This document shows, piece by piece, positions 8,966 through 26,748 of a DNA stretch of 64,000 nucleotides. A model generated the notes under the pieces. It did no database searches. It had not been told where the DNA came from and worked only from the letters and a program-made list of their open reading frames with translations. The DNA lies in NCBI GenBank assembly GCA_002269645.1, contig NIVC01000877.1:104803-168802 (forward strand), written 5' to 3'. How positions within the stretch are numbered: position 1 is the stretch's first letter; each line of letters opens with the position of its first letter. Source of the stretch: Macrostomum lignano. Lineage: Eukaryota. The translations under genes were made by a program, and so were the position numbers.

Positions 8966-9981
8966 TGATGTAACCGCCCTTGTCGCCTGTCCGCTCCGTA
9001 GAGAGACGAACGCATGACTAGAGGGGGCAATGACCGTAGGCTGCCTATGACCGGGCAATGGCCTGACGTACCTCCAGCACCAGACTGTCCCGCCCACATG
9101 ATTGATAGCTTTGGTAGCGCTTTGTGACCAGAGGGCCAAGGGCCCACATGGACCCCATCTGTAGCCAAGGTGCAATAGTTGGTCACTCGGTCATAGTATG
9201 ACCGAGTGGCTGCCACCACTCTATGTGACCTGGCGCACCTGGATCTTTCTACCAGACCTCTCGAGGCTAGAGCCCCGCCTGGGATCGTTACCAGGAGATT
9301 TAGGCTAACAGGGGAGACACATGCAGCCGAGTACAGGGACTCTGCTTGGGGCATGATCGGGAACTCTGGGCTCAATCTGGAGGATTTCTCAGCAGGGGAT
9401 CCTTTGTGGCTGTGAGCGAGGCTAACTTGCGACTTTGATTACTAAGAGTAGTATGAGACGAACATGTACTGTCTATAGGTTAGATTGCTCAGGGCGAAGG
9501 GACGCGTCAGCATGGGGTTGCAACCTTCCTACTGCCATTCTGTGCCAAGACTCGCTAATCCCCTCTACTGCCCGCACACACGGCCCCGCAGCACGCACTC
9601 ACAGGCGGGCTGTGCACGGGGAGAGGCCATTAGCTTACCCAACTTCCTTATGCTTTGCCACCCCGGGAGAAAGGCTTAGCAAGCCATGAGTGAAATGATG
9701 GTGAAAGAGTGAATAATGATGGGGTTAGTTAATAGTTAATATTTAGGCCCTTAGGCAAAGAATCAGGCAATTAGGCGGCTTCACTATTGAATAAAATACA
9801 GCAGAAAGTTACGGTATCACAATTGACTCAGCTCTCTAATCAGACAATGGAAAATAGGCAAACCCCGGATAAGCAAAGGCAATTAGAGCACAAATTAGTA
9901 ATAGGAACTTACCGGCAGCTGCACAGAGAGAGAGAGAGAGACGGGGTGACCGAGGGCGGCTGTAGGCTGCAGTCAGGCAGA
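8966..9981 (-). mobile_element. Left part of a TG...CA element (probable Gypsy-type solo LTR, about 2.2 kb) split by the Polinton
   Basis: Starts TGATGTAACC (8966), the exact inverted copy of GGTTACATCA (27924-27933). TATG flanks both ends (8962-8965 and 27934-27937), a 4-bp TSD. Confidence 0.7.
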
Positions 9982-10085
9982 AATAGTATACGTTTTTTTG
10001 ACACAAAGCCGATTTCCTTATGGCGAAATACATAGTAAGTACAGGCCCAAAAAATGGCAGAGTCTGAAATTTGCCGTGCACGCAA
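9982..10085 (+). repeat. Left terminal inverted repeat
   Basis: About 100 bp matching the reverse complement of about 26640-26742, with only a few substitutions or indels. Confidence 0.95.
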
Positions 10086-10318
10086 ACTAGCTTTTACGCA
10101 ATGAATTAACCAATTAGCTGAATCACTTTTACGCAAACACCTGTCTATCCACCTAAATTCTATCCGCAATGAATGCTGCTAATTACAAGCCCAACCAAAA
10201 TTCAATTTGACACAAAGCTTATTTCGCGTATAACTTAACGCATTTAAATTCTTCTTTTCAAGCAGTATTGTATATTTCAACTAGATACAAACACAATTTG
10301 ACGCACAAATTAGCGAGT

Positions 10319-10882
10319 CTACAAATATTGAGGCAGCACTCGTAAAACAAAATTGCGTAATTTACCATACAAGTATCGAAACGAACCAGTGCGAATTATA
10401 TTCCGTTTAAAAACGCTTCTAATAAAACACTCTAGGTTTCCTCTGGTAGTCAACTTATGAAAAATATAAAAAATTACCCAAAATCCACAACTTCCACTCT
10501 GTGGGTCTTGGATAGCAAAGCGACTATAACACCAATTTTTCGAATTTTCACATTCTTTTCCTAGCCATTTTGCTATTCTTGGCAATGGTAGTAGACCAAG
10601 AGAATCAAAATATTCACCAAGTCGTTTGCTACCGCGACCTGCTCGATGACCATAAACCCAAACGCATACCCAATGTTTTCCGGGCAGGTTGGAGACGTCA
10701 GTATTAACGATAAAAAAATAGTCTTTACCGTCTAAAGGTAAGCGTCTAAGTCCACCAACAAAGTTTTGAGGAAAAACACCAAGAAATACAACATTTAAAA
10801 AATGTGCGCACAATTTCGATACAACATTGCGAAGGAAGCGATCTGTTACACCACGATCTAGGATAGAATCAATTACTTCCAT
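10319..10882 (-). CDS. Adenain-like (Ulp1/adenoviral-type) cysteine maturation protease
   Basis: NTDVSNLPGKHW (His), YFDSLG (Asp), QDPQSGSCG (Gln, Cys): intact catalytic set in the order typical of Polinton proteases. Confidence 0.92.
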   Translation of the reverse strand: MEVIDSILDRGVTDRFLRNVVSKLCAHFLNVVFLGVFPQNFVGGLRRLPLDGKDYFFIVNTDVSNLPGKHWVCVWVYGHRAGRGSKRLGEYFDSLGLLPLPRIAKWLGKECENSKNWCYSRFAIQDPQSGSCGFWVIFYIFHKLTTRGNLECFIRSVFKRNIIRTGSFRYLYGKLRNFVLRVLPQYL

Positions 10883-12194
10883 ACTGTGCCAGGAACAATG
10901 TCGCGAAGTTCAGTCAGTTGCAGTTGCTTGTCAAATATACCTCCAAATATGACGTTGTACACGGTACTAGTTGCAGCATTGAAGCGTAACTCTAGTTTTA
11001 CATTTCCTTCCTTATACAGTTGCACTCCCCGTCCGACACCAGGTTCACTTCCAAGACTGAATGCAAAAATTGAGTAACCATTGGCGTAATCCAGCATATT
11101 AAATCCAATATCTCGTCCCTGTAGATAGATTCCAAGCTGTTGTAGCAAAAAATTATACTCTGTCACACAATCATCTCCAAAGTTTGTCTGCAGCGGACGC
11201 GATGGTACCGAGTCTCCATTCACAAACACACCAATGCTGCTCACATTTGCATGCTCAAAGTTGAACGGATTTGTGTCCATGCTTCCATTGAATGCCTTGT
11301 TGCTTACGATTGCCATCAATAAAAGCCGTGGTACCCCACTAGGAAACAAATTTTCATGCGTATGGCTAGACGATCCTCGGGTATAGTAAACGTACCAAGG
11401 CTTAGACTTCGGTGCGGATATAATGCATTGTGACTTTTAAGTCCATGAGCATGTGCACTGATAACACTCGGCGAGGGTTGAACAAACCGCAATCGTAGTT
11501 CTGCACGCAAAAACTTGATCTCATAGTCTTTTAAAACCGCACCAGCTTCTAATGTTGACCCGCTCAGGACAAATTTACTTTTTGCCGGTATGAGCTTGAT
11601 CCGTAGTGGTGTCTTTGATAGTAGATACCGAGGCTGACGAAACAAATCCAAGAATAACGGCCCCGATACAGTGCACCGCCTATTGTTAGCAATGAGCGCC
11701 TGCCTCTTTGTTCGTCCATCGTTTTCACTTGTTGCATTCATTTTACCAGCTGTATCCTTGTAAAACCCCCACGGCAGTAAACCAGCCTTCTGAGCTGTAT
11801 GTCCATATTCCAGTAATGTAAGAAGCATAGCCTTGTATGGATACATAAAACTACCACCTTCAACTACAGTATCGCCAATAGTAAATTGAACGTCCTCAAA
11901 CAATGTTCCAATAACCAAATTATTCAAACAAACAAAATTTTTCGTTGCATCTATAGGTTCACCTTCACTATCACTAACGCTGAAGCATACCGTGAGCACA
12001 GTTTCTTGTAGATCCAAATACAAATCGCCTGCAGGCACAACTTCAAATTCGATAGGTGATCCTTTTGTAATACCATGTTGCGGTTGAATGTTAGTATATC
12101 GATTATCCAAAACACTAAACTGAACAGGACTTTGATCAAATAGCGACAATTCACTTTTAAGAGCAGCAATATCAGGTCCAAGCAAATGGTTCAT
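10873..12194 (-). pseudogene. Duplicate major capsid protein gene with a 1-bp frameshift
   Basis: Appears identical to 12706-14028 except G4 to G3 at about 11379-11381, which splits it into the 296-aa and 158-aa ORFs. Confidence 0.85.
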
Positions 12195-12195
12195 G

Positions 12196-12654
12196 CTACT
12201 TTTCAAACAGACTAAAAAGTTTCTTGCTTGCAGTAGCAGTTCGACGTTTTCCTATACCACCGGTCTTCTTGCGTTTTCTTTTGTTCACGCGTCCCTTTCC
12301 ACACTGTCTTGTTCGTCGTTTCTTTTGCCGTTTCTTCTTTCCTAAGCTTATAGCCACTCCACTGGTTCTTTTCCTTCGCTTTGGTCTCGAAACTGCAGTT
12401 GTATTAAACATCTCTTCGCTCGATTCTGTGTCCAAGTGACGCTTCCGACCCATACCAATTTTTGCTGTCGCACTTTTCAAATACTCCAGACCACGATCCA
12501 AGAAATCTTTCTTTGCGTTGCGTAGTACAGGATACACCAATCTGTCCGCCAAATTTGACAAAAAACCGTAACCTTCGTAAACAGGAATGCCATATCCACC
12601 TCCACCTTCAGCAGATCTATTCGGACCAGAATAAAAAGCAAAAATAGGATCCAT
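12196..12654 (-). CDS. Duplicate of the Arg/Lys-rich putative core protein
   Basis: Same translation as 14030-14488; part of the tandem duplication. Confidence 0.7.
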   Translation of the reverse strand: MDPIFAFYSGPNRSAEGGGGYGIPVYEGYGFLSNLADRLVYPVLRNAKKDFLDRGLEYLKSATAKIGMGRKRHLDTESSEEMFNTTAVSRPKRRKRTSGVAISLGKKKRQKKRRTRQCGKGRVNKRKRKKTGGIGKRRTATASKKLFSLFEK

Positions 12655-12705
12655 TTCAACAGTCTTCTCTTCGTCATGTTACACCACGATCTAGGATAGA
12701 ATCAA

Positions 12706-14028
12706 TTACTTCCATACTGTGCCAGGAACAATGTCGCGAAGTTCAGTCAGTTGCAGTTGCTTGTCAAATATACCTCCAAATATGACGTTGTACACGGTAC
12801 TAGTTGCAGCATTGAAGCGTAACTCTAGTTTTACATTTCCTTCCTTATACAGTTGCACTCCCCGTCCGACACCAGGTTCACTTCCAAGACTGAATGCAAA
12901 AATTGAGTAACCATTGGCGTAATCCAGCATATTAAATCCAATATCTCGTCCCTGTAGATAGATTCCAAGCTGTTGTAGCAAAAAATTATACTCTGTCACA
13001 CAATCATCTCCAAAGTTTGTCTGCAGCGGACGCGATGGTACCGAGTCTCCATTCACAAACACACCAATGCTGCTCACATTTGCATGCTCAAAGTTGAACG
13101 GATTTGTGTCCATGCTTCCATTGAATGCCTTGTTGCTTACGATTGCCATCAATAAAAGCCGTGGTACCCCACTAGGAAACAAATTTTCATGCGTATGGCT
13201 AGACGATCCTCGGGGTATAGTAAACGTACCAAGGCTTAGACTTCGGTGCGGATATAATGCATTGTGACTTTTAAGTCCATGAGCATGTGCACTGATAACA
13301 CTCGGCGAGGGTTGAACAAACCGCAATCGTAGTTCTGCACGCAAAAACTTGATCTCATAGTCTTTTAAAACCGCACCAGCTTCTAATGTTGACCCGCTCA
13401 GGACAAATTTACTTTTTGCCGGTATGAGCTTGATCCGTAGTGGTGTCTTTGATAGTAGATACCGAGGCTGACGAAACAAATCCAAGAATAACGGCCCCGA
13501 TACAGTGCACCGCCTATTGTTAGCAATGAGCGCCTGCCTCTTTGTTCGTCCATCGTTTTCACTTGTTGCATTCATTTTACCAGCTGTATCCTTGTAAAAC
13601 CCCCACGGCAGTAAACCAGCCTTCTGAGCTGTATGTCCATATTCCAGTAATGTAAGAAGCATAGCCTTGTATGGATACATAAAACTACCACCTTCAACTA
13701 CAGTATCGCCAATAGTAAATTGAACGTCCTCAAACAATGTTCCAATAACCAAATTATTCAAACAAACAAAATTTTTCGTTGCATCTATAGGTTCACCTTC
13801 ACTATCACTAACGCTGAAGCATACCGTGAGCACAGTTTCTTGTAGATCCAAATACAAATCGCCTGCAGGCACAACTTCAAATTCGATAGGTGATCCTTTT
13901 GTAATACCATGTTGCGGTTGAATGTTAGTATATCGATTATCCAAAACACTAAACTGAACAGGACTTTGATCAAATAGCGACAATTCACTTTTAAGAGCAG
14001 CAATATCAGGTCCAAGCAAATGGTTCAT
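12706..14028 (-). CDS. Double jelly-roll major capsid protein (Polinton PY / hexon-like), about 440 aa
   Basis: Size, position next to the protease, and the motifs SELSLF, IEFEV, PYKAML and AFNGSMDTNPFNFEH typical of Polinton MCPs. First ATG at 14028 (the track uses an alternative start at 14040). Confidence 0.9.
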   Translation of the reverse strand: MNHLLGPDIAALKSELSLFDQSPVQFSVLDNRYTNIQPQHGITKGSPIEFEVVPAGDLYLDLQETVLTVCFSVSDSEGEPIDATKNFVCLNNLVIGTLFEDVQFTIGDTVVEGGSFMYPYKAMLLTLLEYGHTAQKAGLLPWGFYKDTAGKMNATSENDGRTKRQALIANNRRCTVSGPLFLDLFRQPRYLLSKTPLRIKLIPAKSKFVLSGSTLEAGAVLKDYEIKFLRAELRLRFVQPSPSVISAHAHGLKSHNALYPHRSLSLGTFTIPRGSSSHTHENLFPSGVPRLLLMAIVSNKAFNGSMDTNPFNFEHANVSSIGVFVNGDSVPSRPLQTNFGDDCVTEYNFLLQQLGIYLQGRDIGFNMLDYANGYSIFAFSLGSEPGVGRGVQLYKEGNVKLELRFNAATSTVYNVIFGGIFDKQLQLTELRDIVPGTVWK

Positions 14029-14029
14029 G

Positions 14030-14488
14030 CTACTTTTCAAACAGACTAAAAAGTTTCTTGCTTGCAGTAGCAGTTCGACGTTTTCCTATACCACCGGTCT
14101 TCTTGCGTTTTCTTTTGTTCACGCGTCCCTTTCCACACTGTCTTGTTCGTCGTTTCTTTTGCCGTTTCTTCTTTCCTAAGCTTATAGCCACTCCACTGGT
14201 TCTTTTCCTTCGCTTTGGTCTCGAAACTGCAGTTGTATTAAACATCTCTTCGCTCGATTCTGTGTCCAAGTGACGCTTCCGACCCATACCAATTTTTGCT
14301 GTCGCACTTTTCAAATACTCCAGACCACGATCCAAGAAATCTTTCTTTGCGTTGCGTAGTACAGGATACACCAATCTGTCCGCCAAATTTGACAAAAAAC
14401 CGTAACCTTCGTAAACAGGAATGCCATATCCACCTCCACCTTCAGCAGATCTATTCGGACCAGAATAAAAAGCAAAAATAGGATCCAT
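14030..14488 (-). CDS. Basic putative DNA-condensing core protein
   Basis: 152 aa. N-terminal GYG motifs and amphipathic helix, K/R-rich C-terminal half (RPKRRKR, KKKRQKKRR, KRKRKK). Immediately upstream of the MCP. Confidence 0.65.
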   Translation of the reverse strand: MDPIFAFYSGPNRSAEGGGGYGIPVYEGYGFLSNLADRLVYPVLRNAKKDFLDRGLEYLKSATAKIGMGRKRHLDTESSEEMFNTTAVSRPKRRKRTSGVAISLGKKKRQKKRRTRQCGKGRVNKRKRKKTGGIGKRRTATASKKLFSLFEK

Positions 14489-14529
14489 TTCAACAGTCTT
14501 CTCTTCGTCATGCAATCCCAATTCATGTG

Positions 14530-15690
14530 TTACTTATACACTTTAGAAAATAGTTTAGCAGTCTTTGCGTCAAGATCATTTTCGTTTAACCACTGACTTC
14601 TTGAGATTGGCATACCTTTCCATTTTACTAGATACAGACGACTTCCATTTTTCGCTCGATCAGTTTCAATAACTTTTTCAATTTCATTAGGTGTTTCATC
14701 TGTCTCGTTTACCAACATTAGTTCCGCTTGGTTAAACCTTCCTTTCAGCACTTCAAATCCATCTTCAGGGTCCACTAATTCGTACATTGGCGGGTCTGTC
14801 AAGTGTACACGATGAATGCGATATTTTGAATTACTCCAAGTCGTAGTGTATCCTTTTTCAAATGTTCCTCGACGTCGTGTAATTCTAACCCAATCACCAA
14901 CTTTAAATTTATTCTCATTCTTTTTAGTGTACGACTTCGCAAACATTTTGTCCCACAAAATTCCTTGTAAATGCGGGTCTGTCTCTACCCGTTTTGGTGT
15001 TTCTCCACTCAAGGATCGATGAGGACTAGAGTTGAAATTATCTTCCAATTGCGGTAAAATGTCAAACCATCGAGGTAAATTTTTTGCTCGAAAGTATCGT
15101 AATAGACGTTCCTTTAACGAGCGGATAAATCGTTCAGCCATGCTTGCCTTGTAATTGCTTTGGCTAACAAAAAATCGAACTCCTTCCTGTTTCAGCATTT
15201 GACGTGTAGCTCTTCCGAGAAACTCCATACCAGCATCACCTTGTAAATAAACAGGCTTAAAACCACTTCGAAAAATCTCTAGTAATACTTGACTAACTTC
15301 TGAAGGCTTCTTTGTACGCAATGGTCTTAGTCGTACAACTCTAGTAAAACAGTCGATAAGAACAAGTATGTAACGATAACCTCGATTTTCCGTCTTGTAT
15401 TGAGGTAAATCTGCCAAATCGATTTGAAACTGAAACTTTGCAACTGGTGGCACACTAATTTTTGGAGTTGGAAAGTTTCGTCGTGTTTTTCGAAATAAAT
15501 GATGCTCATTTGTTGATCGCACCCAATTATCAACTTCGCGCTTTGCAACTTTGTTCGTAATCTGTGGAAACTTTTTACGTACTTCACGAACAAGTATAGT
15601 CTTGTTACCACTAAATGAAGTAGGCCTGTTCAAGTTAAAAAAAGCATCCGTCAAAAATTCTTCAATTTCCTTACGCACTCGCTTCATCAT
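14530..15690 (-). CDS. Retroviral-type (RVE) DDE integrase with C-terminal chromodomain
   Basis: FQIDLADL (D), LQGDAGMEF (D), AERFIRSLK (E), FKVGDWVRI, FEKGY, and the chromo-like IEKVI...YLVKWKG...QWL. Consistent with the 6-bp TSD. Confidence 0.95.
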   Translation of the reverse strand: MMKRVRKEIEEFLTDAFFNLNRPTSFSGNKTILVREVRKKFPQITNKVAKREVDNWVRSTNEHHLFRKTRRNFPTPKISVPPVAKFQFQIDLADLPQYKTENRGYRYILVLIDCFTRVVRLRPLRTKKPSEVSQVLLEIFRSGFKPVYLQGDAGMEFLGRATRQMLKQEGVRFFVSQSNYKASMAERFIRSLKERLLRYFRAKNLPRWFDILPQLEDNFNSSPHRSLSGETPKRVETDPHLQGILWDKMFAKSYTKKNENKFKVGDWVRITRRRGTFEKGYTTTWSNSKYRIHRVHLTDPPMYELVDPEDGFEVLKGRFNQAELMLVNETDETPNEIEKVIETDRAKNGSRLYLVKWKGMPISRSQWLNENDLDAKTAKLFSKVYK

Positions 15691-15859
15691 CAGTTAGATT
15701 GATGCTAGTCGTTTGACAGTTGCAACAAAAGAACGAAGCCTCGATCGAATCTCCGTCAGTATCCTCGTTGTGCTCCTTTCCCAGAAACGGCACACATTCA
15801 GATTTTATGCAAAAAAACTCACAGAGACGAATCAAAAGTTTTTGGAAGATAGATGACAT
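15671..15859 (-). CDS. Small Cys-rich hypothetical protein (62 aa)
   Basis: ATG start, TATAAGC box 64 nt upstream, overlaps the integrase start. No recognisable family. Confidence 0.35.
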   Translation of the reverse strand: MSSIFQKLLIRLCEFFCIKSECVPFLGKEHNEDTDGDSIEASFFCCNCQTTSINLTDDEASA

Positions 15860-15971
15860 GGTTTGTCTTATTAAACTATATATTTTTCATAAACAAAAAA
15901 TTAACCTTTTTAAAAAGCTTATAGTGCTCGAATCAATTTTGTTAAAACGTAATCTGTAATTTTAAAACAAC

Positions 15972-16661
15972 TTAATTCAGTGTTTGATAATTTTCAAACA
16001 GACTAAGATCCTCCTTTGCAACAGTTTTTGGAGCAGACATTAGCTCGTTTCGTACATGACGCCCGATTTGGTTTGCTGCGATTCCACGTTTTCGAAGAAA
16101 GTCTAAAAATGTTTTTAGTCCACTAGGCGGTTGAGTCTCGTGTCGCTTAAGCGGTCTGTCTCGAACAACATATTCCATGAGATCTTGTATCTCGGCATCA
16201 GTCAAATTAGCCAGCATTGGTTCTGCATTCTTGTCCATGTCCGAAAATAGGTTTTGAGCGAGAGCTTCGAAACGTGGTAAAAAAACTTTAGGAATTTCCC
16301 TTGATTCGCTGGCATATGAACTTCTTACAGTAGTCCCTTTGCGAACAAGTGACAGATTGTCCTCGTCTCCAGTGCGATAGACTTTGCGCAATTTTAAAAG
16401 TTTGTCTTCCAATCTGCTTCGTTTCAATTGAGCTGTGTAATTTGGCTCCTTTTCCATTTCCTTGTCCAAGTTATCCATTTGGTCTCTCATTTCCACCATA
16501 TTTTTTGCCAGAGCATCTTGCGGTGCGTCTAAAACTTCAGTTTTTCGAGGTGTCTCAGCAGTTGGTGACGATCCTTGCTCTGCACCTTGACATGCAGATT
16601 GATACACAGATTCAGGTACTAGATACATTCGTTGAAAACTACTACTCTCGTTAGTTCGCAT
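15972..16661 (-). CDS. Polinton hypothetical protein (229 aa, predicted helical/coiled coil)
   Basis: Tightly packed ORF in the virion module. RMYLVP resembles the N-terminal motif of unannotated Polinton ORFs as I recall them. Confidence 0.7.
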   Translation of the reverse strand: MRTNESSSFQRMYLVPESVYQSACQGAEQGSSPTAETPRKTEVLDAPQDALAKNMVEMRDQMDNLDKEMEKEPNYTAQLKRSRLEDKLLKLRKVYRTGDEDNLSLVRKGTTVRSSYASESREIPKVFLPRFEALAQNLFSDMDKNAEPMLANLTDAEIQDLMEYVVRDRPLKRHETQPPSGLKTFLDFLRKRGIAANQIGRHVRNELMSAPKTVAKEDLSLFENYQTLN

Positions 16662-16671
16662 TATATTCCTA

Positions 16672-17100
16672 CTACTTTCGTTGAATTGATCGTATTAAAT
16701 TCGCTGCTCCCGCGGCGGTACCAACTACTCCAGACGTTATCCCAAGCGCAGTGCTTATAGCAGGTAGAGCGGCAATAATTGGAGCCAAAAAAGGTAAAAA
16801 TCCTCCGTGTTGGACAAGTATTTTCCTTTTTGCAGTAATTGGAGTCTTCTGTTCCAAAAGCTGGCGTATATATCTGCGATGCTTCTCAAGTCGTCTTTTG
16901 TTACAGTTACTAATTTTAATACGTCCACTAATAATATTAAACAGAAAGTCTACTAGACATCGTATCTCCGACTCTGAAAGTGTTTGTAAAAAACTTTTTC
17001 TCTGCTTTGGATGCTTTAGCCGATAAACAATTTGTAGTAAAAAAGCACACTGACACAATGAGCGAGCATTTTGTTTTCCTTTTTCTGTTAGTTCGCTCAT
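16672..17100 (-). CDS. Putative membrane-active virion protein with C-terminal amphipathic peptide (GGFLPFLAPIIAAL...)
   Basis: Basic middle region, then QHGG-FLPFLAPIIAALPAISTALG. Similar GGFL-tail proteins recur in Polintons/adintoviruses (from memory). Confidence 0.7.
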   Translation of the reverse strand: MSELTEKGKQNARSLCQCAFLLQIVYRLKHPKQRKSFLQTLSESEIRCLVDFLFNIISGRIKISNCNKRRLEKHRRYIRQLLEQKTPITAKRKILVQHGGFLPFLAPIIAALPAISTALGITSGVVGTAAGAANLIRSIQRK

Positions 17101-17156
17101 TCTTACAAAACAAATTCACAAAATTTTCTATTACACAATTAATCTTTGCTTATAAA

Positions 17157-18146
17157 TTAGTCCGACCTATGTTTAAAATGCAGTACGACAACAACGTGTG
17201 CTCCCGGATCAAAATTAAACGGTTTTCCGCGCTGGTCCGATAGTCGAATCGAAATCTCGTGAATTTGTTGTCGATTTGTTTTCAAGTAGTAGGGTGTTTG
17301 CAATGCACTGCTATCGCGTATAAGTTCTCCGTTTTTCTTTTGTTGGAGTTCCACAACTCGAAGCAACGGTACTGATGTACTTCCCACTGCTTGATACTCG
17401 ATTATATCTGTGTAACAGTACATGTAAACCGTTTTACTAGGCATCGGAGAAGGTAGCACAGCATCCAAGTAGGTTTTGTTAATGCGCCAAACACGATTTC
17501 TCAACCAATATTGGTGTACTTTGATGTACACTTCTCCTTCCGTTTTTCGAAGATAGTCTCCATGCGAAACAAGTCGTATAGCTTCACCAGGCGATAGAAC
17601 ACAATAAAAAACATAATAGTTCTCAGGTACTAGCGCTAGAGTATTGTCGAGACTTTTTATCAAATCCAAGTATGAACCATCCGGTGGTTGTACACTACCA
17701 GCGGCAGGTTTTGATAATTTTTCCGAGACAAGTCCAGAAAGTTTCTTCCAAGAGTCAAATTTGAAAGCGTCCATAAATGTAACTGGTAGTTCTAATCCAA
17801 TAGTTTTTTCGCCTGAATTTCGTAAAAGCCAGGCAAATTTTTCATCTGTACCAGACGGTTGCCAGGAAACGTAAGCATCCAAGTCTGCCTCTGCCCAAAC
17901 ACGACCCCAATAGTTTTTCTTTAATCGTATTATTGAGTCAATGTCCGCAAAATATGGAACTTCAAATCGACGCTCACGATGAGCATTTGGCGTCGTAATT
18001 GCTCCATGGCACAGTAATTCAACTAGTGCAACCTCGAAGAATCCGTTCAATAAATTTATTGGTTCAGTTAGTCGCACTCGAAATTCATTAGGCGAGTTGG
18101 TTTCGTAACTGATATCGTTTGACGGCAAAAAAACGTAAAAACTCAT
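17157..18146 (-). CDS. Minor capsid protein / penton (Polinton PX)
   Basis: N-terminal FYVFLPSN...NEFRVRL..PINL..GFFEVALVE and C-terminal MYCYTDIIEYQAVG...PLLRVV...ISIRLSDQ...F: the penton signature. Confidence 0.88.
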   Translation of the reverse strand: MSFYVFLPSNDISYETNSPNEFRVRLTEPINLLNGFFEVALVELLCHGAITTPNAHRERRFEVPYFADIDSIIRLKKNYWGRVWAEADLDAYVSWQPSGTDEKFAWLLRNSGEKTIGLELPVTFMDAFKFDSWKKLSGLVSEKLSKPAAGSVQPPDGSYLDLIKSLDNTLALVPENYYVFYCVLSPGEAIRLVSHGDYLRKTEGEVYIKVHQYWLRNRVWRINKTYLDAVLPSPMPSKTVYMYCYTDIIEYQAVGSTSVPLLRVVELQQKKNGELIRDSSALQTPYYLKTNRQQIHEISIRLSDQRGKPFNFDPGAHVVVVLHFKHRSD

Positions 18147-18181
18147 TTTGAAATAAAACACAAACTAATATTGACAACAGT

Positions 18182-18898
18182 TTATAATTTGCTTATAATA
18201 ATATTACACAAACTTTGCATCACATTCACGAGTATAGACAACTTGTTCATCACCAGAAATATTCCTGTTCTCAATCGTAAAAAATCTGGTGTCACTTGCC
18301 GCAGGTCAATGAATAAATATGAAAAAGGTTTGTTATTTGTTGCGTCTTCATACACATTCACTAGAAACCTACTATTACGCGGATACATTTGTCGACCGAG
18401 ATGTTCAACTGTGGTTCGATCGCGCACACTACGAGTTAGACAAATATAACTAGCTGATAAACTTCGCATGCGTGCTTCTGGATCAGACTTGTTAAAAAGA
18501 CCTTGACAAAGGTACAGACAAGTCAAAGGGATATGATGCGCATGCTTTGTAAACATACTAGTAAATTCTGGCAACTTAGCAATCTCGCTTTGCAAGTCGT
18601 CAACAACAACCAAATCGTGTGGTAAAAAACGATTAATCATCTGTGGTGTGAATTCGGGTACAAAAACAATAGGGTCAAGACCGCTTTTTTGCCAGCATGT
18701 TCTAATTCGTTGTTGATCGTCTGGTTTCAAACTTGATCCATGGCACCAAACAAGACGGCACGGTTTTTTATCAAATAATTCTTTTCGTTCAGTCAACAAA
18801 CGCAACGTCCATTCAGTTTTACCCGAGTTTGAAGGTCCAGCAATAATAAATGTAGAATCGTGAGCTAGTTGCATATTGTATGGCTGCTGCATTTTCAA
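18182..18898 (-). CDS. A32/FtsK-like genome packaging ATPase
   Basis: Walker A GPSNSGKT, Walker B LVVVDD, plus FTKHAHH, LCQ, NKPFSYLFIDL. Confidence 0.93.
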   Translation of the reverse strand: MKMQQPYNMQLAHDSTFIIAGPSNSGKTEWTLRLLTERKELFDKKPCRLVWCHGSSLKPDDQQRIRTCWQKSGLDPIVFVPEFTPQMINRFLPHDLVVVDDLQSEIAKLPEFTSMFTKHAHHIPLTCLYLCQGLFNKSDPEARMRSLSASYICLTRSVRDRTTVEHLGRQMYPRNSRFLVNVYEDATNNKPFSYLFIDLRQVTPDFLRLRTGIFLVMNKLSILVNVMQSLCNIIISKL

Positions 18899-19338
18899 GC
18901 ACCAAAGCGTTGCTTAACTTGCATAACCTTGGTAACCAACTTCGCAGCTAGTTTTTCTTTCCAACCAGTAGACGGATCGTGGGCAATCTCTCGTGCACCA
19001 GATTCTAATAGCTTATCAGCTTTTAACCTCTCTTGCACGTCAGAATTTTTATCATAGGCCACGTCGTGAAGCATGCACAAATTGTCAAGCCGATTAATTC
19101 CTCGTTGTCCTTTTGCTAGCCTAGCTTGCAGTTGCGTACCTGGACCACAAAACTGATATCCGCCGGGTAAATGTGCTTCAAATGGTAAATGATTAATTAA
19201 CCAATTTACGACACCATAACCTTGTTGCTTTTTATTAATCTTTCTAATAGATTTCTTCTTTTTACGAATGCTCTTCTTTTTCTTTTTAAAACCTCGATCT
19301 TTCGCTGGAGACATTTTTACAACATATATTTTAGGCAT
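18895..19338 (-). CDS. Parvovirus-type phospholipase A2 domain protein (PLA2X-like)
   Basis: YQFCGPGT (Ca-binding loop) and NRLDNLCMLHDVAY (His-Asp), preceded by a Lys-rich N-terminus. The likely start may be the second ATG at 19314. Confidence 0.88.
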   Translation of the reverse strand: MPKIYVVKMSPAKDRGFKKKKKSIRKKKKSIRKINKKQQGYGVVNWLINHLPFEAHLPGGYQFCGPGTQLQARLAKGQRGINRLDNLCMLHDVAYDKNSDVQERLKADKLLESGAREIAHDPSTGWKEKLAAKLVTKVMQVKQRFGA

Positions 19339-19429
19339 AAATTTTTAAAATTGCTTATAGTATTTACAAAGCTCTCGCATAGTGCACCAATCACCAAAGA
19401 AAAAAATCAGTTTATTATTATTATTATAC

Positions 19430-19912
19430 TTATTGGCCAGTGCTGCCAAAGCCGCCAAAGCCGCGCCGCTTGGTCGGCGGCTCAATCATCCGAATCGAAT
19501 TGTCTGCTTCAGTCACATAGACTGAAGCAAGCACGGCCTGCTCCAGAACCAGTTGTGCAATACTGAGCCCGGCATAGTACTCAAAGTCTTCCGGACTGTA
19601 ATTAAACAAGACTATACAGATTTCACCAGTATAGTCGGGGTCGATTACGCCACCGCCAACAAATAAGCTGTGCAGAGCCATGCTGGAACGTCCCGCTATC
19701 CTGCCATAGGTACCAGGCGGTAAGCGAATTTTGAGTCCGGTTCGCACACTCCGGGACTCGTAGGCCGGAATGGTACCATCGACGCCAGCGCAAAGATCAT
19801 ACCCGATCGACCCGACAGTTTTTCGGGTCGGAATCGTTGCCGAATCGTATAGACGTTCAACTAAAAGCTTACGATCAGTTAGTTGTTGTTGCTGCTGCTG
19901 CTCGGGATTCAT
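19430..19912 (-). CDS. dut: dUTPase
   Basis: All five trimeric dUTPase motifs: GSIGYDL, GRIAGRSS, GVIDPDYTGEI, IAQLV, RGFGGFGSTG. ATG taken at 19912. Confidence 0.95.
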   Translation of the reverse strand: MNPEQQQQQQLTDRKLLVERLYDSATIPTRKTVGSIGYDLCAGVDGTIPAYESRSVRTGLKIRLPPGTYGRIAGRSSMALHSLFVGGGVIDPDYTGEICIVLFNYSPEDFEYYAGLSIAQLVLEQAVLASVYVTEADNSIRMIEPPTKRRGFGGFGSTGQ

Positions 19913-20209
19913 GTCGATTCTTGTAGCTGAAAGTTTAAAAAAAAGTTTTTTTTCTTGAAACATGAACGATAGCACTACATTTACGTCTACTACAAACACA
20001 AGCTTAGTCTTGAGAATCTAACTATAAAAAATATACTTTTTCAAATAATTAAACACAAAAAAGTGCTAAAATTATAATTTAAACGAATGCCGGTATCATT
20101 TATTTATTGTAAATAATGATCAATGAAAAAATTAATGATGGGTTACAGTCTTCTATAGCATGCTATTACTTTGTACAACAAAAGAGATCAGAGCATATTG
20201 TTAATTAAT

Positions 20210-20535
20210 TAGCCAAGTGCCAGTGTCCAAAGGGTAGCGAATTAATTGAACTTGTCCAGGATCGCTTCGTATCGAAGAAGCTTAGTGCAAGTTTTCTTTG
20301 TTGCATCAAAAAAAACTTTCTGTTTTCGAGAACGAATGGACTGCATGCGCGAAAACACAAGTTGTCGCTTGTGTAAGACTCTTAAATAGTCTTGATGCTT
20401 TAAACTGCTCTGTGCGGCTTTAGAAGCAGTACTGCTCCAGCTTTGCGACCGATTGAGACTGGAACTTTAAACGATTGCTGCTTAACCAGACCGGACCGGA
20501 CTGGACCGGACCGGACTGGACCGGACTCCCCGCGC

Positions 20536-20567
<32 letters not shown>

Positions 20568-21302
20568 ACCACCACCGCCGCCACCACCACCACCACCACC
20601 GCCGCCACCACCACCACTGCCGCCGCCCGCCCCCACACCACCGTGGGACGTATTTGTTGACAGTGTGCTTGCATGGCTTTTGCGATAAACGCAGAGCATC
20701 AAGTCTAGCTGCTCGATTGCTCTATATTGCCAATTACTACCTCGAGATTGAAAATTGTCAATTTTTATTAACAACTGATTAATAACGCGTGCGAACCAGT
20801 CATTGTAGGCCTCGGGAGATAACAGCATGTCACTGTTTGCAATCGTCTCATCAAATGATATTGTCGCAATGTTGGTATTAAAATAGACCGAAATGATCTC
20901 TTCGCTGCTCGAGCCATCGTTGTCGTCTGCTGCTGTTTTCGGTCGAAATAGTGTCACTTTCAAGTGAAAGCAGACTCTTATTAATAAACTGGGTGAGCCA
21001 ATTTTTTCCAATATTTTAAATATTGGTTCTCTTAAAGACGCAATCAACTCGCCAGGAAGTAACTCGCCAGAGCTGTTGCCTTGTTGTTCAAGAGTGGGAG
21101 TAAATTCGACAAAATTTACCCGACCACGATGAGCTGACTCGCGCAAAGCGATGGACCACCCATCTGGTGGGTTTTCGATCAGGTTTTGCAGCGATCCGGT
21201 CAGTAATCGTTGCGGTGAAAAACAAGCACCATGCGAGTGAGCATGCAGCTCGGCTTGATTACTGAACTTTTTTCTGCAGATTTGGCATTGTGCACGCGGC
21301 AT
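20210..21302 (-). pseudogene. C2H2 zinc-finger ORF resembling the N-terminal part of Polinton pPolB polyproteins, truncated
   Basis: CQICRKKF..ELHAH finger; YFNT; KIDNFQSRGSNWQYRAI; VPVSIGRKAGAVLLLK. After two in-frame stops comes SDNLCF. No exonuclease or polymerase motifs follow. Contains a poly-Gly microsatellite. Confidence 0.55.
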
Positions 21303-21524
21303 TGTGTGCACCTAGCTCGACAACGAGCGTATCGAGCATAATATTAATAGATGATCCGGTTTGTCATTTGCGGCTGTAAGAAAAATGATGATTTGGTTAG
21401 TTATAGGTATAGCTGACACGTTTACTATTAGAGAAAACAATTGGTAAATAAATGAAAACAAGACAAAATGTTTAAAAGAATGCATCGCAACTGCGATTTG
21501 ACAGCAATTGTTTACTTGTTAAGT

Positions 21525-22082
21525 TTAGTTATTAACAGAGATTAAAAAATCCTTGACATGGTTAAGAATATTATTCAATTCATGAGTGTTTTGAACGCCC
21601 ATAATAACAAACTTTTTCGAAAAAAATATGTTACAAAAAAGCCTTGGTTTTGATGCTGATCTAACAGAAACTGCTTGTGGGAAATTTTCTGCATCGTATC
21701 CAACCAGATAATTCGAATAGTAGCCTGCATATCTTTTTAGACTAGAGAAACCGAATTTTGGCCAAAGATGACCAATAAAGCCGACATAGGTACTGCTCTG
21801 AATTTTTACTGAATCAAAATCTACACAATTAATAGTGTCGTTGATAAATCGTAAAACTGAGACTATCTGAGAATTTGATTTACAGCCATATATAGTTAGT
21901 TTTCCTGCTGGATAAAGTTGGATTTTAGCATTTGAATAAATTGTCTTTAGCATTGTTGGTCGGCTTAGGAATAGTTTGCAAAACCGGTTTCTGGTCTGTA
22001 GCTTCTGTTTGGTCTGCTTTAAATCAAATTTTTCAAACGGGTGCAGCTTCAGACTCGCAGTAACTATTAATAGGACAAGTCG
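21525..22082 (-). CDS. Divergent TATA-binding-protein-like protein
   Basis: Two TBP-repeat matches by eye: AKIQLYPAGKLTIYGCKS ~ TALIFSSGKMVCTGAKS; DFDSVKIQS ~ FLDFKIQN; YDAENFPQ ~ YEPELFPG; KPRLFCNIFFSKKFVIMG ~ KPRIVLLIFVSGKVVLTG. The frame stays open 43 codons upstream of the ATG at 21953, up to a pyrimidine tract plus AG. Confidence 0.75.
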   Translation of the reverse strand, partial: RLVLLIVTASLKLHPFEKFDLKQTKQKLQTRNRFCKLFLSRPTMLKTIYSNAKIQLYPAGKLTIYGCKSNSQIVSVLRFINDTINCVDFDSVKIQSSTYVGFIGHLWPKFGFSSLKRYAGYYSNYLVGYDAENFPQAVSVRSASKPRLFCNIFFSKKFVIMGVQNTHELNNILNHVKDFLISVNN

Positions 22083-22292
22083 CTAAAACGGAAAATAAAT
22101 AATAAGAAAAGTTAAACATGACTATACTATCGTAAATTCTAATATTAAATTACAAAACCTGGTTAGCGTACAAGGAGTAGCAAAAAATGTTTTGAGCTTT
22201 TCCCTAAAAAATAATATTTCCCTAGCCAAAAATTTGATAAATATAGTGGAATAAGTTAGTTAAAACTTGGATAAAATTAGTCAAAAATTTTG

Positions 22293-23491
22293 TTACTCAT
22301 CATCAGAGCTGCTGTACGAGTCGTCCGATGAAGACACGCTAGCTGTAGTAGCGTCCGCAGCAGCACGCTTTAAAAATGCTGTCTCCTTGGACGCTACCCT
22401 GGTTCCAGAGGCAGGTGTACTCACCAAGATCTTTGCTGGTGGAGCCTCCACCCAGTCTGTGCCATCTGCACCAGCTTCGGCAGAATTGTTTTGCTGTTTT
22501 GCACCGCTGCGTTTTCGAACTTGCTTTTTAGGCGGCGGTTCAATAGAGGCTGGCGCTGCATTCGATGTAGTCGACTTCTTCGATACGGTGGTGGTAGACC
22601 GACGCTTTGCAGGTGACTTGGCAGGTGTCACCTGGCTTGAATTCTGCAGGCTTTGTTCATTTGCTTCTTCTTGCTCACAGGTAGATGTTGGGGACGGACT
22701 CCTGCTTCTAATTGCTGACTTGGTCGCGGGTAGGTGTGCAAGCACTCCCTTGAACATGTCGAGGCGCTGCAACATGTTGTCGGAAGATTCTATGAGTGTC
22801 AGAGAGCGCACAGCGAATGTAATGCGCCAGACGAGGCAGCCTTTTGGACAATACAAGCTCGTTGCTTGCACTGTCATTTGGTAGGTACCGCTGACACCTT
22901 TGAAATCGGAAATGGACACCTCCTTCCCGTGTGGATGATCGTTGCTGATCCTGATTGTGGCACAAGGGTAAGCAGGCTTTATAGCCAGCCATTGTTGAGG
23001 CACAAACTCGAGGACGTCGTTAGCATGCTGATGAGCTGGTTTTGTTAGTCGTGCCAAGGGTCGAGCATCTTGAATCTCGTTCAACTTGACCGATAGACCT
23101 TTTTCGACTTGACTGCAAAACATTATATAAATTATGAATATAGTTTCCTAAAATTAATTGTATAAATTTAATATGGTGCTCACCGGAGAGAGTGGAAGAG
23201 TTCCTTATCGCAGCTGTCTGGATGAAATTGGACACTTACTGCGTCGCGAGAGTCGTGTCTGCAAGACGGATGATCGAGCTCTGGCCTTTCTGCGATTCCA
23301 CGAAAAAGCTCCATTGGAGCCTTGGTTTGCAATATAATTGGGTACCATTTTGTACACTCGATTGATGGTTTCCACGCAATAGATCGAAACTGGCAGGACG
23401 AACCAGTCGTGGTTGTAGACTGCTCTCCAACGTAAAAAATCGGACTCGAGTCGGAGCGTACAATTGACTCCGTCTTGATGCAAGCTGCCAT
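22293..23491 (-). CDS. Spliced 375-aa protein, putative OB-fold ssDNA-binding protein (exons 23491-23184 and 23112-22293)
   Basis: 71-bp GTGAGC...TTTTGCAG intron joins two track ORFs in frame (FHSL-R-QVEK). Beta-strand-rich core, low-complexity linker, acidic tail SSSDDSYSSSDDE. TATAAATA at 23570-23577. The gene structure is well supported; the SSB function is inferred. Confidence 0.65.
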
Positions 23492-24179
23492 GTCTTACAA
23501 GCAATTGAATATAGTATTTCTTTTGCTGTAATGATTGAGCTCATGAAAAATTGACCATTTCGGGTCTTGTATTTATAGCAAGCATTGCATGCTGTTTGTG
23601 AACTAGTAAACAAATTTAATTGTTGCGTGCTGATTAAGACATTGTTGCGTGCCAAAGGTGGCATAAGTTTCTAGGGTGGGTTGCATGATTAGGTCTAATT
23701 TTACGCAAATGTAGGTTGATATTTTATAAAATAAAATTAATGAATCTTAGGCACACTAGTTATAAATTTGCAAGAGTAACACGATGGCAAGCGTTTAATA
23801 AGAAGACTGCTGGTTGCTGCTTCATTAGATTGGTTTTGTTCTCAAGTAGAATGTAATTAAAATATTTTGCGACTTGAAAAATTAGCAATCTTGGATTTTA
23901 GAGTAAAAATAAGCTGCACGCGGTGCTATGAAATTAATTTATTGAAAGTTTTGCTTGCATGTTGGAATTTTTTAGCTCGCACGGTGACAAGAGATTGCTT
24001 GAGTAACCTATATATAGAGTGTTACTTTTCAAACAGAAAAAGGTATAGTTGTAACTCAGCTTTTGCAGTCCTATATTGAGCAGAAGCTATATAGAGTTAC
24101 ACTATCATGCTGCGACGCGCAGCTTGTTGGGACTATAATGACTGCCGCTGCTATAACCGCATGCAGTCAGTGCAGTTGA

Positions 24180-25070
24180 CACACAAATGCTGTTTGGACT
24201 AAGCTAAATTACTGTGTTGAGACAGTTAAGCTGGACCACGGCTAAATCACTATTGATACGGTTAATTGCTACTAGACCCATGGCTAAATCACTGTACGTT
24301 GAGACGGTTAAGCTGGACCACGACTAAATCGCTGTACGTTGAGACGGTGGTTAAGCTGGACCATGGTTATAAAACTGGACGGGTGGTTAAGCTGGACGAC
24401 TACAGCTAAAATTACTGTTGAGTCAGTTATGCTAGACCACAGCAGCCAAATCACAGTTGAGGTAAAGCTGACCATAGCTAATTCTCACTGTTGAGACGGG
24501 TGCTGCTGCTTGGCTCACAGCTAAATAACTGGACAGTTAAGCTAATCGGACTACAGCTAAATCCCTGTTGAGACAGTTGCCTGGACCACAGCTAAAATCA
24601 CTGTTGAGGCAGTTAAGTCTGGACAACAGCTAAAATTACTGTTGAGACAGTTAAGCCTTGACTATAGCTAAATCATCGTTGAGGTAGTTAAGCCTGGACT
24701 ATAGCTAAATCACTGTTGATGCAGTTTTAAGCTAGACCACAGCTAAATCATACTGCTGAGGCAAAAAAGCCGGACCACGGCTAAAAACTGTTGAGGCAAA
24801 AGCTGGACCACAGCTAAATCATACTGTTGAGGCAAAAGCTGGACCACAGCTAAATCATACTGTTGAGGCAAAAGCTGGACCACAGCTAAATCATACTGTT
24901 GAGGCAAAAGCTGGACCACAGCTAAATCATACTGTTGAGGCAAAAGCTGGACCACAGCTAAATCATACTGTTGAGGCAAAAGCTGGACCACAGCTAAATC
25001 ATACTGTTGAGGCAAAAGCTGGACCACAGCTAAATCATACTGTTGAGGCAAAAGCCAGACCATGGCTAAA
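24180..25070. repeat. 36-bp tandem array inside the Polinton (CTGGACCACAGCTAAATCATACTGTTGAGGCAAAAG)
   Basis: 7 perfect units at 24803-25054, preceded by progressively degenerate units back to about 24180. Confidence 0.92.
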
Positions 25071-25317
25071 GAAACGTATGAAAAAAAATTATTTGCATGG
25101 ATTAATAATTTTTGTTTAATGATGACTGTACAAGATATTGACTTTATATTGAATTAAATAATTTCAATGAATGGTGAATAAAATTGAAAGAATTTTTAGA
25201 ATAATGAATTTATAGAGATTATATTATTGATTACAGACTTGTTTGATATATACTAAAAGAGCAATTACTTGACACATTGCTGGCAAAATTTTATGAAGAG
25301 TTAGAAAAAATGTCTTT

Positions 25318-26179
25318 TTAAGATAGGTCCCAATATTCAAATACTTGAGTTGTATTACAGGTCTTTGCTAATTCTACTTGGTAGAAGCCTGTGCTCATTT
25401 GAGAGACTTTTACAGACTTGATGTCCTTCTGTACAATAATTGGCGAGTTTAGCAGCGGTTGAACTTGGGTAGAAATAGCAATTGATGATGATGGTGTTTC
25501 AGTTGCTGTCGTTGGTTTGGTACTTGTAGGCTTACTGCAAGTTTGCTTTGTTGGGTCATTGTAGCTGGTTGGTGATGGTGGTGGTGGTGCATACTGCAGT
25601 TGGTCAGTTGGTCGTGGGTTCGATTGCTGCCTAATTGACTGAATAACATCAGTTCTTGTGTAAATGCGATCTAGCTCAGTTGTCTGTCTCTCGACATGAA
25701 TCGAGGTTACTCTGGCGAGAGATGTAGAATATGATGCTCTTGCAGCAGAATTGGATGTGGTGGTGTCGTGGCAAATGCGTTTGCACTGATCTGGAGGTGG
25801 CCGCGTGAAGAAACCATTCTTGAATGCTATAATAATGGATAAGATGAGGGAAATTTGGTATAGGTGCATGTATACAATGTATATAGAAACTGAACTAGCA
25901 GAGAATCAGTCTAAACAGAAACCGAACTAGCAGACAATCAATCTAGAAATTCTGAACTAGCAGAGTATTAGTCTAAACAGAAACCAAACTAGCAGACAAT
26001 CAATCTAGAGACTGAACAAACAGAGGATCGGTCTAAACAGAAACCGAACTAACAATCAATCTAGAAACTAAACTATAGCGAACAGTCAATCTAAAAAAGA
26101 AAACTGAACTAGAGTAGGTGATTATCTTACCTTGTTTAACATAGCGCTCGGCCAATTCCTGCTGACGTGATCGCTTCAT
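25318..26179 (-). CDS. Spliced 185-aa hypothetical protein (exons 26179-26131 and 25826-25318)
   Basis: ATG AAG CGA...AAA CAA G|GTAAGA donor and CCATTATTATAG|CA acceptor give the in-frame sequence MKRSRQQELAERYVKQAFKNGFF. P/T/S-rich middle region. Confidence 0.55.
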
Positions 26180-26574
26180 TTCACTTAAGATGTAAGTATA
26201 GTTGAACAAGTAGTATAATGTAAACTTGGTTTAAGTTATTTAATATTTTCTGTGTCAGTGTGTTCGTATATATATATATATAGTATAAAGAAGAAGCATG
26301 TTGACGCAGTTGTTGACATAGTATCTGTAAACCATCTGCTCAAGTTGGTGCAAAAATTCTTTAGGCACTCAAGAATAGATCATTTACTATCTTTCTTCAA
26401 AAGGGTGATAATATTCACAAGTTTTCAATATTTCAATAACACTTGAAATGTGTGAATAGCTTTGGAGTAAATTTGTCTTGAATGGAATCCTTTGAAGTGT
26501 GTTTGTGTCACCATTGCTAGAATCGGTTACTTGTATTTTGGACAGGTGGATATGCAATTCGTCTGAATAATCAC

Positions 26575-26742
26575 GTTGCGTAAAAGATATTTAGCGTGCA
26601 CTTGGAATTTCAGACTGCATGCACATGGAATTTCAGACTGCGTGCACATGAAATTTCGGACTCTGCCATTTTTTTGGGCCTGTACTTACTATGTGTTTCG
26701 CCATAAGGAAATCGGCTTTGTGTCAAAAAAACGTATACTACT
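26575..26742 (-). repeat. Right terminal inverted repeat with three internal 23-bp direct repeats
   Basis: Reverse complement begins AGTAGTATACG. Three copies of GTGCAC(A/T)TGGAATTTCAGACT-like sequence at about 26597-26662. Confidence 0.95.
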
Positions 26743-26748
26743 GGCAGA

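Follow-up and report, generated by a model that had tools for sequence, protein, structure and literature searches.

A Polinton family of Macrostomum lignano that lost the catalytic part of its DNA polymerase and is probably copied with the help of a relative sharing its terminal inverted repeats

The 64,000-nt stretch of Macrostomum lignano contig NIVC01000877.1 analyzed here (the window, to which all coordinates refer) contains an element of the Polinton type flanked by terminal inverted repeats (TIRs). The two TIR arms align with 94% identity over 102 nt, consistent with Polinton TIRs, and GGCAGA is present on both flanks. The insertion target was a host repeat, and in all five of its uninterrupted paralogues (5 of 5) GGCAGA occurs once; therefore, it is a true target-site duplication (TSD). 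A 6-bp TSD is among the Polinton features given in the accessible part of PMC8097293, and the window element has it. Both the TIRs and the TSD had been proposed in a first-pass annotation of the window, and both stand. The target repeat (9700-9981 and from 26743 onward) has at least 638 candidate copies at ~95% identity.

All 14 main open reading frames (ORFs) are on the minus strand (Table 1). This strict single-strand order had been pointed out in the first-pass annotation and is correct as a description. The same order is seen in the intact relative described below and in sister families, and therefore it is not special. The likely capsid genes and the integrase, packaging ATPase, and protease genes are open, and the catalytic motifs of integrase, protease, ATPase, phospholipase A2 (PLA2), and dUTPase are all present. 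The rve integrase shows a Pfam match above the cut-off together with the DDE motifs, the ATPase shows Walker A and B motifs, and the cysteine protease shows its motifs and a weak match to Peptidase_C5. The earlier claim of intact virion and integration frames holds except at two points: one of the two copies of the gene for the major capsid protein (MCP) is broken, and the last 17 residues of the ATPase are changed relative to other copies by a 1-nt indel near 18259.

Table 1. Features of the Polinton element and its flanks in the 64,000-nt window.
Feature	Position	Strand	Evidence or remark
Whole element	9982..26742		
Left TSD, GGCAGA	9976..9981	n/a	single in 5/5 empty host-repeat paralogues
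Left TIR, ~102 bp	9982..10084	n/a	
Adenain-like cysteine protease, 187 aa	10319..10882	-	Pfam Peptidase_C5 E 0.044 (weak); His/Asp/Gln-Cys motifs
Extra tandem copy (1,834 nt) with MCP and 152-aa genes	10844..12678	-	MCP broken by 1-nt indel near 11379
Likely MCP, 440 aa, open	12706..14028	-	homology
Basic protein, 152 aa, possible core protein	14030..14488	-	function suggested by composition
rve integrase with C-terminal chromodomain, 386 aa	14530..15690	-	Pfam rve E 4.5e-8, Chromo E 1e-6; DDE motifs
229-aa ORF	15972..16661	-	kept in sister families
Protein with adenovirus pX-like motif, 142 aa	16672..17100	-	Pfam Adeno_PX E 2.3e-6
Putative penton/minor capsid protein, 329 aa	17157..18146	-	size and position; same position in sister families
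Packaging ATPase	18182..18892	-	Walker A and B motifs
Parvovirus-type PLA2 protein, 147 aa	18895..19338	-	Pfam Phospholip_A2_4 E 3.4e-9
dUTPase, 177 aa	19430..19963	-	Pfam E 1.5e-29
Left-over polymerase 3' end, ~64 codons	20200..20406	-	past the stop; 1-nt insertion
Deletion joint	20406..20407	n/a	3,163 nt of polymerase gene missing; 1 nt homology
Polymerase N-terminal part, 300 aa	20400..21302	-	
TATA-binding-protein-like ORF	21525..22082	-	first ATG 21953; possibly spliced; Pfam TBP E 2.3e-7; archaeal TBP 1mp9 E 3e-4
276-aa ORF with acidic tail	22293..23123	-	candidate single-stranded-DNA-binding protein (lead only)
142-aa ORF	23236..23664	-	doubtful coding status
36-bp tandem array	24548..25070	n/a	length varies between copies; beside loss of 1.6-kb segment
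183-aa ORF	25318..25869	-	
Right TIR, terminal TACTACT	26639..26742	n/a	
Right TSD, GGCAGA	26743..26748	n/a	

The element had been described as lacking a DNA polymerase. A six-frame scan of the element for five motifs of the protein-primed type B DNA polymerase (pPolB) indeed found none; the gene is internally deleted, not absent, and its N-terminal part, the 300-aa ORF, had been missed. One copy with the same TIRs carries 3.16 kb extra exactly at window position 20406, and this insert encodes the rest of pPolB. Such a pPolB-bearing element with matching TIRs had been suggested as something to look for in the genome. The pPolB-bearing form is present on three contigs, two of which have an unbroken frame of 1414-1415 codons. 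The intact pPolB is 1411 residues long from its first Met, its start matches that of the 300-aa ORF, and it contains Pfam DNA_pol_B_2 (PF03175, E 3.6e-20) and Endonuclease_7; OTU-type Cys/His motifs were spotted by eye. The same-TIR relatives thus have a catalytic protein-primed polymerase.

The 300-aa ORF is 95% identical to residues 1-211 of the 1411-aa pPolB; between the two terminal proteins, ~12 residues differ. Its frame ends two residues past the break, ahead of the OTU-type Cys motif (residue 294 of the intact protein), and the remnant of the pPolB 3' end persists downstream of the stop. At the TIRs, the two forms show at most one mismatch (0-1) over the first 110 nt. The deleted form has a second loss, of 1.6 kb near the right end; both the intact relatives and two older ones retain this segment. 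In total, the genome of the deleted form is ~4.7 kb shorter than that of the pPolB-bearing relative. Polinton-like viruses in the strict sense have another replicase in place of pPolB. No frame longer than 460 codons and no Pfam match to an alternative helicase or polymerase was found in the element, and its earlier label of Polinton-like virus is wrong. It is a derivative of a true Polinton with both pPolB and integrase, not an autonomous member. The segment of the second loss (~1270-2890 of locus L024, G000:C1136) is AT-rich with short frames, among them one of 68 residues, encoded on the opposite strand, which has a basic tail and a hydrophobic stretch.

The deletion recurs in the genome. 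The left end has at least 40 matches among 68 candidates, and the 581-nt joint region gave at least 30 full matches at 98-100% identity with 40 of 51 candidates scored. Among the 31 deletion-type contig copies examined, 17 distinct 6-bp flanks were found, each seen as both a left and a right flank, and similarity between flanks is restricted to flanks of one site. The three contigs of the pPolB-bearing form correspond to two flanks. Nine deletion-type contigs, with 7 different TSDs, have the same TSD at both ends, and three have ends from two different sites; the remaining copies are interrupted by contig ends, and two further end fragments (C34 and C2123) add no new flank. The architecture therefore recurs at 17 TSD-flanked sites, as the first-pass annotation had proposed to check, and a one-off deletion after insertion is not borne out. 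Searches for a further full pPolB copy of this family with the terminal-protein region (97 of 97 candidates) and with pPolB DNA (12 of 12 candidates) found broken fragments only. More distant Polinton families with pPolB are also in the genome (at least 119 matches with 91 of 974 candidates scored); their terminal-protein regions are at most 56% identical to that of the element. UniRef Polinton proteins of M. lignano match one locus of this genome at 91-100% over most of the aligned pieces. Most of 22 related Polinton loci that were mapped have a full-length pPolB and none has the same clean layout with the terminal protein alone; convergent deletion in sister families was thus rejected. Protein P0003 resembles such a deletion, but the two parts of a full pPolB locus that it matches are distant from each other, and it is probably an artefact of gene calling.

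Both forms are also seen in independent public contigs. At least half of the sampled words of the joint region are present in 20 of 24 listed public runs, from 8 studies. Four runs from four studies were mapped as contigs. In three of them, contigs skip exactly the 3,163 nt at the joint, with shorter sides of 63, 41, and 29 nt; in the fourth, a contig extends 29 nt beyond the joint. The interior of pPolB is covered in all four runs (30, 30, 30, and 25 of 30 bins), with one 3,255-nt contig in the interior showing 0 differences. The deleted and pPolB-bearing forms thus coexist in other samples. The 1-nt insertion of the 3' remnant recurs in contigs of three public runs, and two runs have their own variants of the deleted form. 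As public contigs from three studies contain the joint, polymerase sequence collapsed out of the assembly, which the first-pass annotation had named as a possible refutation, is not the explanation. In run X18, a contig with a loose end at 20406 continues into pPolB, is slightly changed near the OTU motif, and may represent another broken variant.

The retained 300-aa protein consists of a C2H2 finger, a predicted terminal-protein domain (~49-207), a Gly linker, and the start of the OTU domain, cut before its catalytic motif. The structure of residues 1-211, modeled with 14 aligned sequences, has a predicted local distance difference test (pLDDT) score of 80. The order of elements in the model is strand, strand, helix, strand, strand, helix, loop, and strand, which form a five-stranded sheet and two long helices. 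The candidate linking residue is Ser189 in the Gly loop ahead of the last strand, where G-S-x-W is invariant in all 14 aligned sequences. A terminal-protein domain of this topology, in which a Gly/Pro loop preceding the last strand carries the linking Ser or Tyr, is described in PMC11161782; at the level of predicted structure, the topology and the Ser189 loop fit this terminal-protein (D1) domain. Among named viral proteins, the best Foldseek E-values were 2e-9 for an adintovirus C2H2 protein and 3e-5 for a MELD-virus PolB. The terminal-protein profile gave no useful match against PDB sequences. Fold matches in PDB were Y-family little-finger domains (Z up to 7.3), a likeness which was treated as a common arrangement. 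According to the accessible part of PMC11161782, OTU is proposed to cleave the terminal protein at the boundary between them, and a coral polinton has the terminal protein as a separate gene. Because the proposed cleavage is at this boundary, the deletion leaves roughly the product expected from processing. The poly-glycine linker between terminal protein and OTU (20520-20640) differs in length between sub-lineages, in steps of multiples of 3 in clean contigs, and shorter tracts are also seen in sister families.

The deletion-type copies are very similar to each other. Thirteen full-length copies show a median of 14.5 substitutions (range 0-46) over ~13,044 nt, or ~0.1%. Nested variants shared by 9, 4, and 3 sites, together with linked length variants in the Gly tract and the 36-bp array, define sub-lineages and suggest that the deleted form went through more than one round of copying. 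Of the variants shared between sites, 11 of 18 are outside the 14 ORFs, where 4.7 are expected (P 0.002, rising to 0.04 when one doubtful ORF is treated as coding; rows with a single site are excluded). This bias is a weak hint of selection after the deletion. One site has a 1.9-kb tract with 7 alleles of the pPolB-bearing type, a sign of exchange with a helper-like template.

Between the deleted and the pPolB-bearing forms, identity is ~96% and the synonymous divergence (dS) is ~0.05 for most genes. The ratio of nonsynonymous to synonymous divergence (dN/dS) is 0.04 for MCP, 0.08 for protease, 0.13 for ATPase, 0.14 for integrase, 0.28 for penton, and 0.24 for terminal protein. In contrast to the ~0.05 of the other genes, dS of dUTPase is 0.54-0.61, about ten times more divergence at silent sites. 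The 3' remnant shows proportions of synonymous and nonsynonymous differences of 0.315 and 0.059, respectively, over 65 codons. This silent divergence of dUTPase and the remnant indicates that the two forms are mosaic for a segment ending at the joint. A cross between two strains may have given rise to the deletion. No donor of the divergent dUTPase segment was found among the loci fetched, and the older copies do not show which lineage acquired it.

It is likely that the deleted family depends on a helper and is copied in trans by the catalytic polymerase of its relative with the same TIRs. The shared TIRs, the census, and the co-occurrence of the two forms suggest this dependence. The first-pass annotation had offered a helper-dependent lineage or a deletion derivative; the evidence indicates both at once, with the polymerase presumably borrowed. 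An integrated copy would be released as linear DNA, and the helper polymerase would start copying it at the TIR origins that both forms have. Priming would be by protein, through the fused terminal protein of the helper or the free one of the element. The element's own integrase would then insert new copies with 6-bp duplications, and a stage in particles would be optional. In defective-interfering genomes, a shorter genome brings a copying advantage. In the same way, a genome ~4.7 kb shorter than that of the helper could have gained enough in copying to reach 17 sites against 2. Excision, replication in trans, packaging, and any use of the free terminal protein are inferred.

That the element primes with its own free terminal protein is possible, at somewhat less than an even chance. 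Still more tentative is a wider proposal, which we consider rather doubtful: a satellite with its own free terminal protein and all virion parts which borrows only the catalytic polymerase. It would be an intermediate of the split between terminal protein and polymerase behind adenoviruses, and an interfering partner that keeps the copy number of the helper low.

Several observations weigh against helper-dependent copying or against parts of it. Replication, expression, and particle formation of the element are predictions from DNA sequence. The purifying selection between the two forms may predate the deletion, and it is therefore no proof that the deleted form needs these genes. One variant shared by 4 sites alters a residue of the terminal protein. 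Natural stand-alone terminal proteins have extra helices absent from fused domains (PMC11161782), so the freed fragment may not be in use. With differences of ~4% overall and ~15% in the dUTPase segment, even the nearest pPolB-bearing copies are not the direct parent. Three of the 12 deletion-type contigs with both ends have unmatched flanks, with ends from two sites; the assembly therefore mixes copies, and shared variants may be partly misassigned. In the public runs, the depth of joint contigs is ~2-4 times that of the pPolB interior, less than 17:2, a comparison in which contig depth is not equal to copy number and broken relatives also contribute.

A different explanation needs no viral polymerase. 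The integrase would move the element by cut and paste, copies would be gained through host replication or gap repair, and the capsid and terminal-protein genes would be passengers that have not yet decayed. In its favor, most copies have an open integrase frame, all insertions are flanked by a 6-bp duplication, the copies are young enough for passengers to appear intact, and the Polinton integrase is related to the cut-and-paste Ginger/TDD transposases according to the accessible part of PMC2836005. This explanation leaves unexplained why a 15-kb unit is present at 17 sites and its equally integrase-competent relative at 2. The tract of helper-type alleles at one site also argues against it, as does, weakly, the avoidance of coding sequence by shared variants. 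We consider it unlikely. An explanation by a single burst, which appears improbable to a similar and very slightly greater degree, assumes that a defective-interfering genome from one infection or reactivation, amplified by a helper outside the assembly, seeded all sites at once and left no lasting lineage. The ~0.1% difference between copies, the deletion with just 1 nt of homology, and a more distant strain, not found, as the source of dUTPase and of the sequence on the right of the joint would agree with it. Against it are the nested sub-lineages, the 1-nt insertion fixed in the dead 3' remnant, the second loss of a 1.6-kb ancestral segment, and the own variants of the deleted form in other samples; these need several rounds of copying, though not necessarily many host generations.

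A collapse in the assembly, or the multiplication of a single decayed insertion along with host DNA, is very improbable and already largely refuted. Some contigs do join the ends of different sites, and an 8.5-kb relative that looks multi-copy is one site repeated with its flank. Nevertheless, the 17 flanks differ and are similar only within a site, and independent public contigs contain the joint. Copying in trans by the polymerase of the relative is thus preferred over these alternatives.

The family shares many features with Polintons/Mavericks and with Alpha-type adintoviruses as presented in the accessible parts of PMC8502044 and PMC8097293: TIRs, 6-bp TSD, rve-chromo integrase, ATPase, protease, likely capsid genes, and PLA2 and pX motifs, and the OTU-bearing pPolB of the intact relative matches PF03175. 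The OTU-bearing PolB of the relative and the PLA2-type gene make the gene set fit the Alpha type. Unlike what these sources describe, the majority form here is without the catalytic four-fifths of pPolB; in contrast to adintoviruses, PLA2 and pX are separate ORFs and a TBP-like gene is present. Mobile Polintons lacking polB are already known from Pieris mannii and other insects (Pannagram preprint, 10.1101/2025.02.07.637071), whose authors left the mode of mobilization open. Like the present family, they are flanked by TIRs, were amplified after the loss of polB, and occur beside highly similar polB-bearing elements. According to the main text of the preprint, the insect cases are two variants plus one small group, and their polB was lost or replaced alongside cargo of long interspersed nuclear elements (LINE) or long terminal repeat (LTR) elements. 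In M. lignano, by contrast, there is a clean internal deletion, at 17 versus 2 sites, with the terminal-protein part open. In the accessible part of PMC11161782, adenoviruses and a polinton of the coral Stylophora likewise encode the terminal protein separately from the catalytic polymerase, split at the boundary of terminal protein and OTU. There the catalytic gene is kept; here it would have to be supplied by another element.

Our literature search, with subscription journals, Repbase, and preprint supplements outside its scope, did not find a majority Polinton form with the loss confined to the catalytic part and the terminal protein retained, nor such a pair at 17:2 sites, nor any paper on Polintons of M. 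lignano; within it, the Pannagram preprint was the sole source on mobile Polintons lacking polB. Non-autonomous Polintons were reportedly described by Kapitonov and Jurka in 2006. Defective-interfering genomes and non-autonomous derivatives of DNA transposons resemble the present family in having an internal deletion, intact ends, and more copies than the helper. Typical non-autonomous derivatives lose most genes, but only the catalytic enzyme and a 1.6-kb segment are lost here and 14 ORFs are kept. Self-copying of Polintons has so far been deduced from gene content. With two forms that have the same ends and differ by one sharp lesion at the boundary of terminal protein and OTU, observable tests become possible, and they open the questions of pPolB action in trans, the use of free terminal protein, and a check on copy number by defective partners. 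Surveys that count Polintons by polymerase matches would miss the majority form of this family.

The names of the virion genes are likely ones based on homology and position. The likely MCP has 113 homologues, several of them in animal genomes, and one of 52 aligned members of its family matches Pfam DJR-like_dom (E 0.0018). Neither MCP nor penton has a Pfam match of its own, and the MCP profile gave no useful match against PDB sequences. The penton, with neither a Pfam nor an NCBIfam match, was assigned by position; NCBIfam gave zero matches for 10 element proteins. The 276-aa ORF scored 0.93 in Atlas to clusters of nucleocytoplasmic large DNA viruses with DUF2738/DUF5871 and 0.89 to Pox_I3. 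Families of the DUF2738/DUF5871 type are presumably linked to single-stranded-DNA-binding proteins (SSBs), and the ORF is a candidate SSB, as a lead only; its structure model is poor (pLDDT 41). The TBP-like gene of this animal Polinton is also found upstream of pPolB in sister families and shows a dN/dS of 0.12. It may tune viral transcription.

The window copy has a 1,834-nt tandem duplication (10844-12678 and 12677-14512), whose two copies differ by one 1-nt indel and which repeats the MCP and 152-aa genes. Without it, the element is ~14.9 kb long, as had been estimated. Among the 40 of 57 candidates scored, the duplication junction is fully matched in the window copy alone. Also private to this copy are the 1-nt indels near 11379 (first MCP copy) and 18259 (ATPase), and the left terminus AATAGT, which is AGTAGT in other copies. 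The duplication, these indels, and the terminus may be assembly errors.

Other derivatives and relatives are present in the genome. The 8.5-kb same-family relative (G000:C4827, C300 twice, C2428, C299, and C1156) has an internal inversion, several deletions, and TSD ATCATA. It was rejected as a second amplified family, being one site repeated with host flank; its pPolB joint is seen in 2 public runs as well. At G000:C105 (~564000-579400; L086 and L123), a same-family derivative has an insertion and lacks everything from dUTPase through the candidate SSB, including the terminal protein. Three older relatives (G000:C201, C616, and C3922) show 75-90% identity, and their right-end segment sits between the 5' part and the 3' end of pPolB. 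One deletion-type copy (G000:C4072, ~14500-23000; L031-L032) has an 8.45-kb insertion in the MCP gene. The ends of this insertion start with CACTAC, and it contains a 693-codon frame with a weak match to DNA_pol_B_2. Similar frames occur at many places in the genome, and the insertion is an unclassified mobile element.

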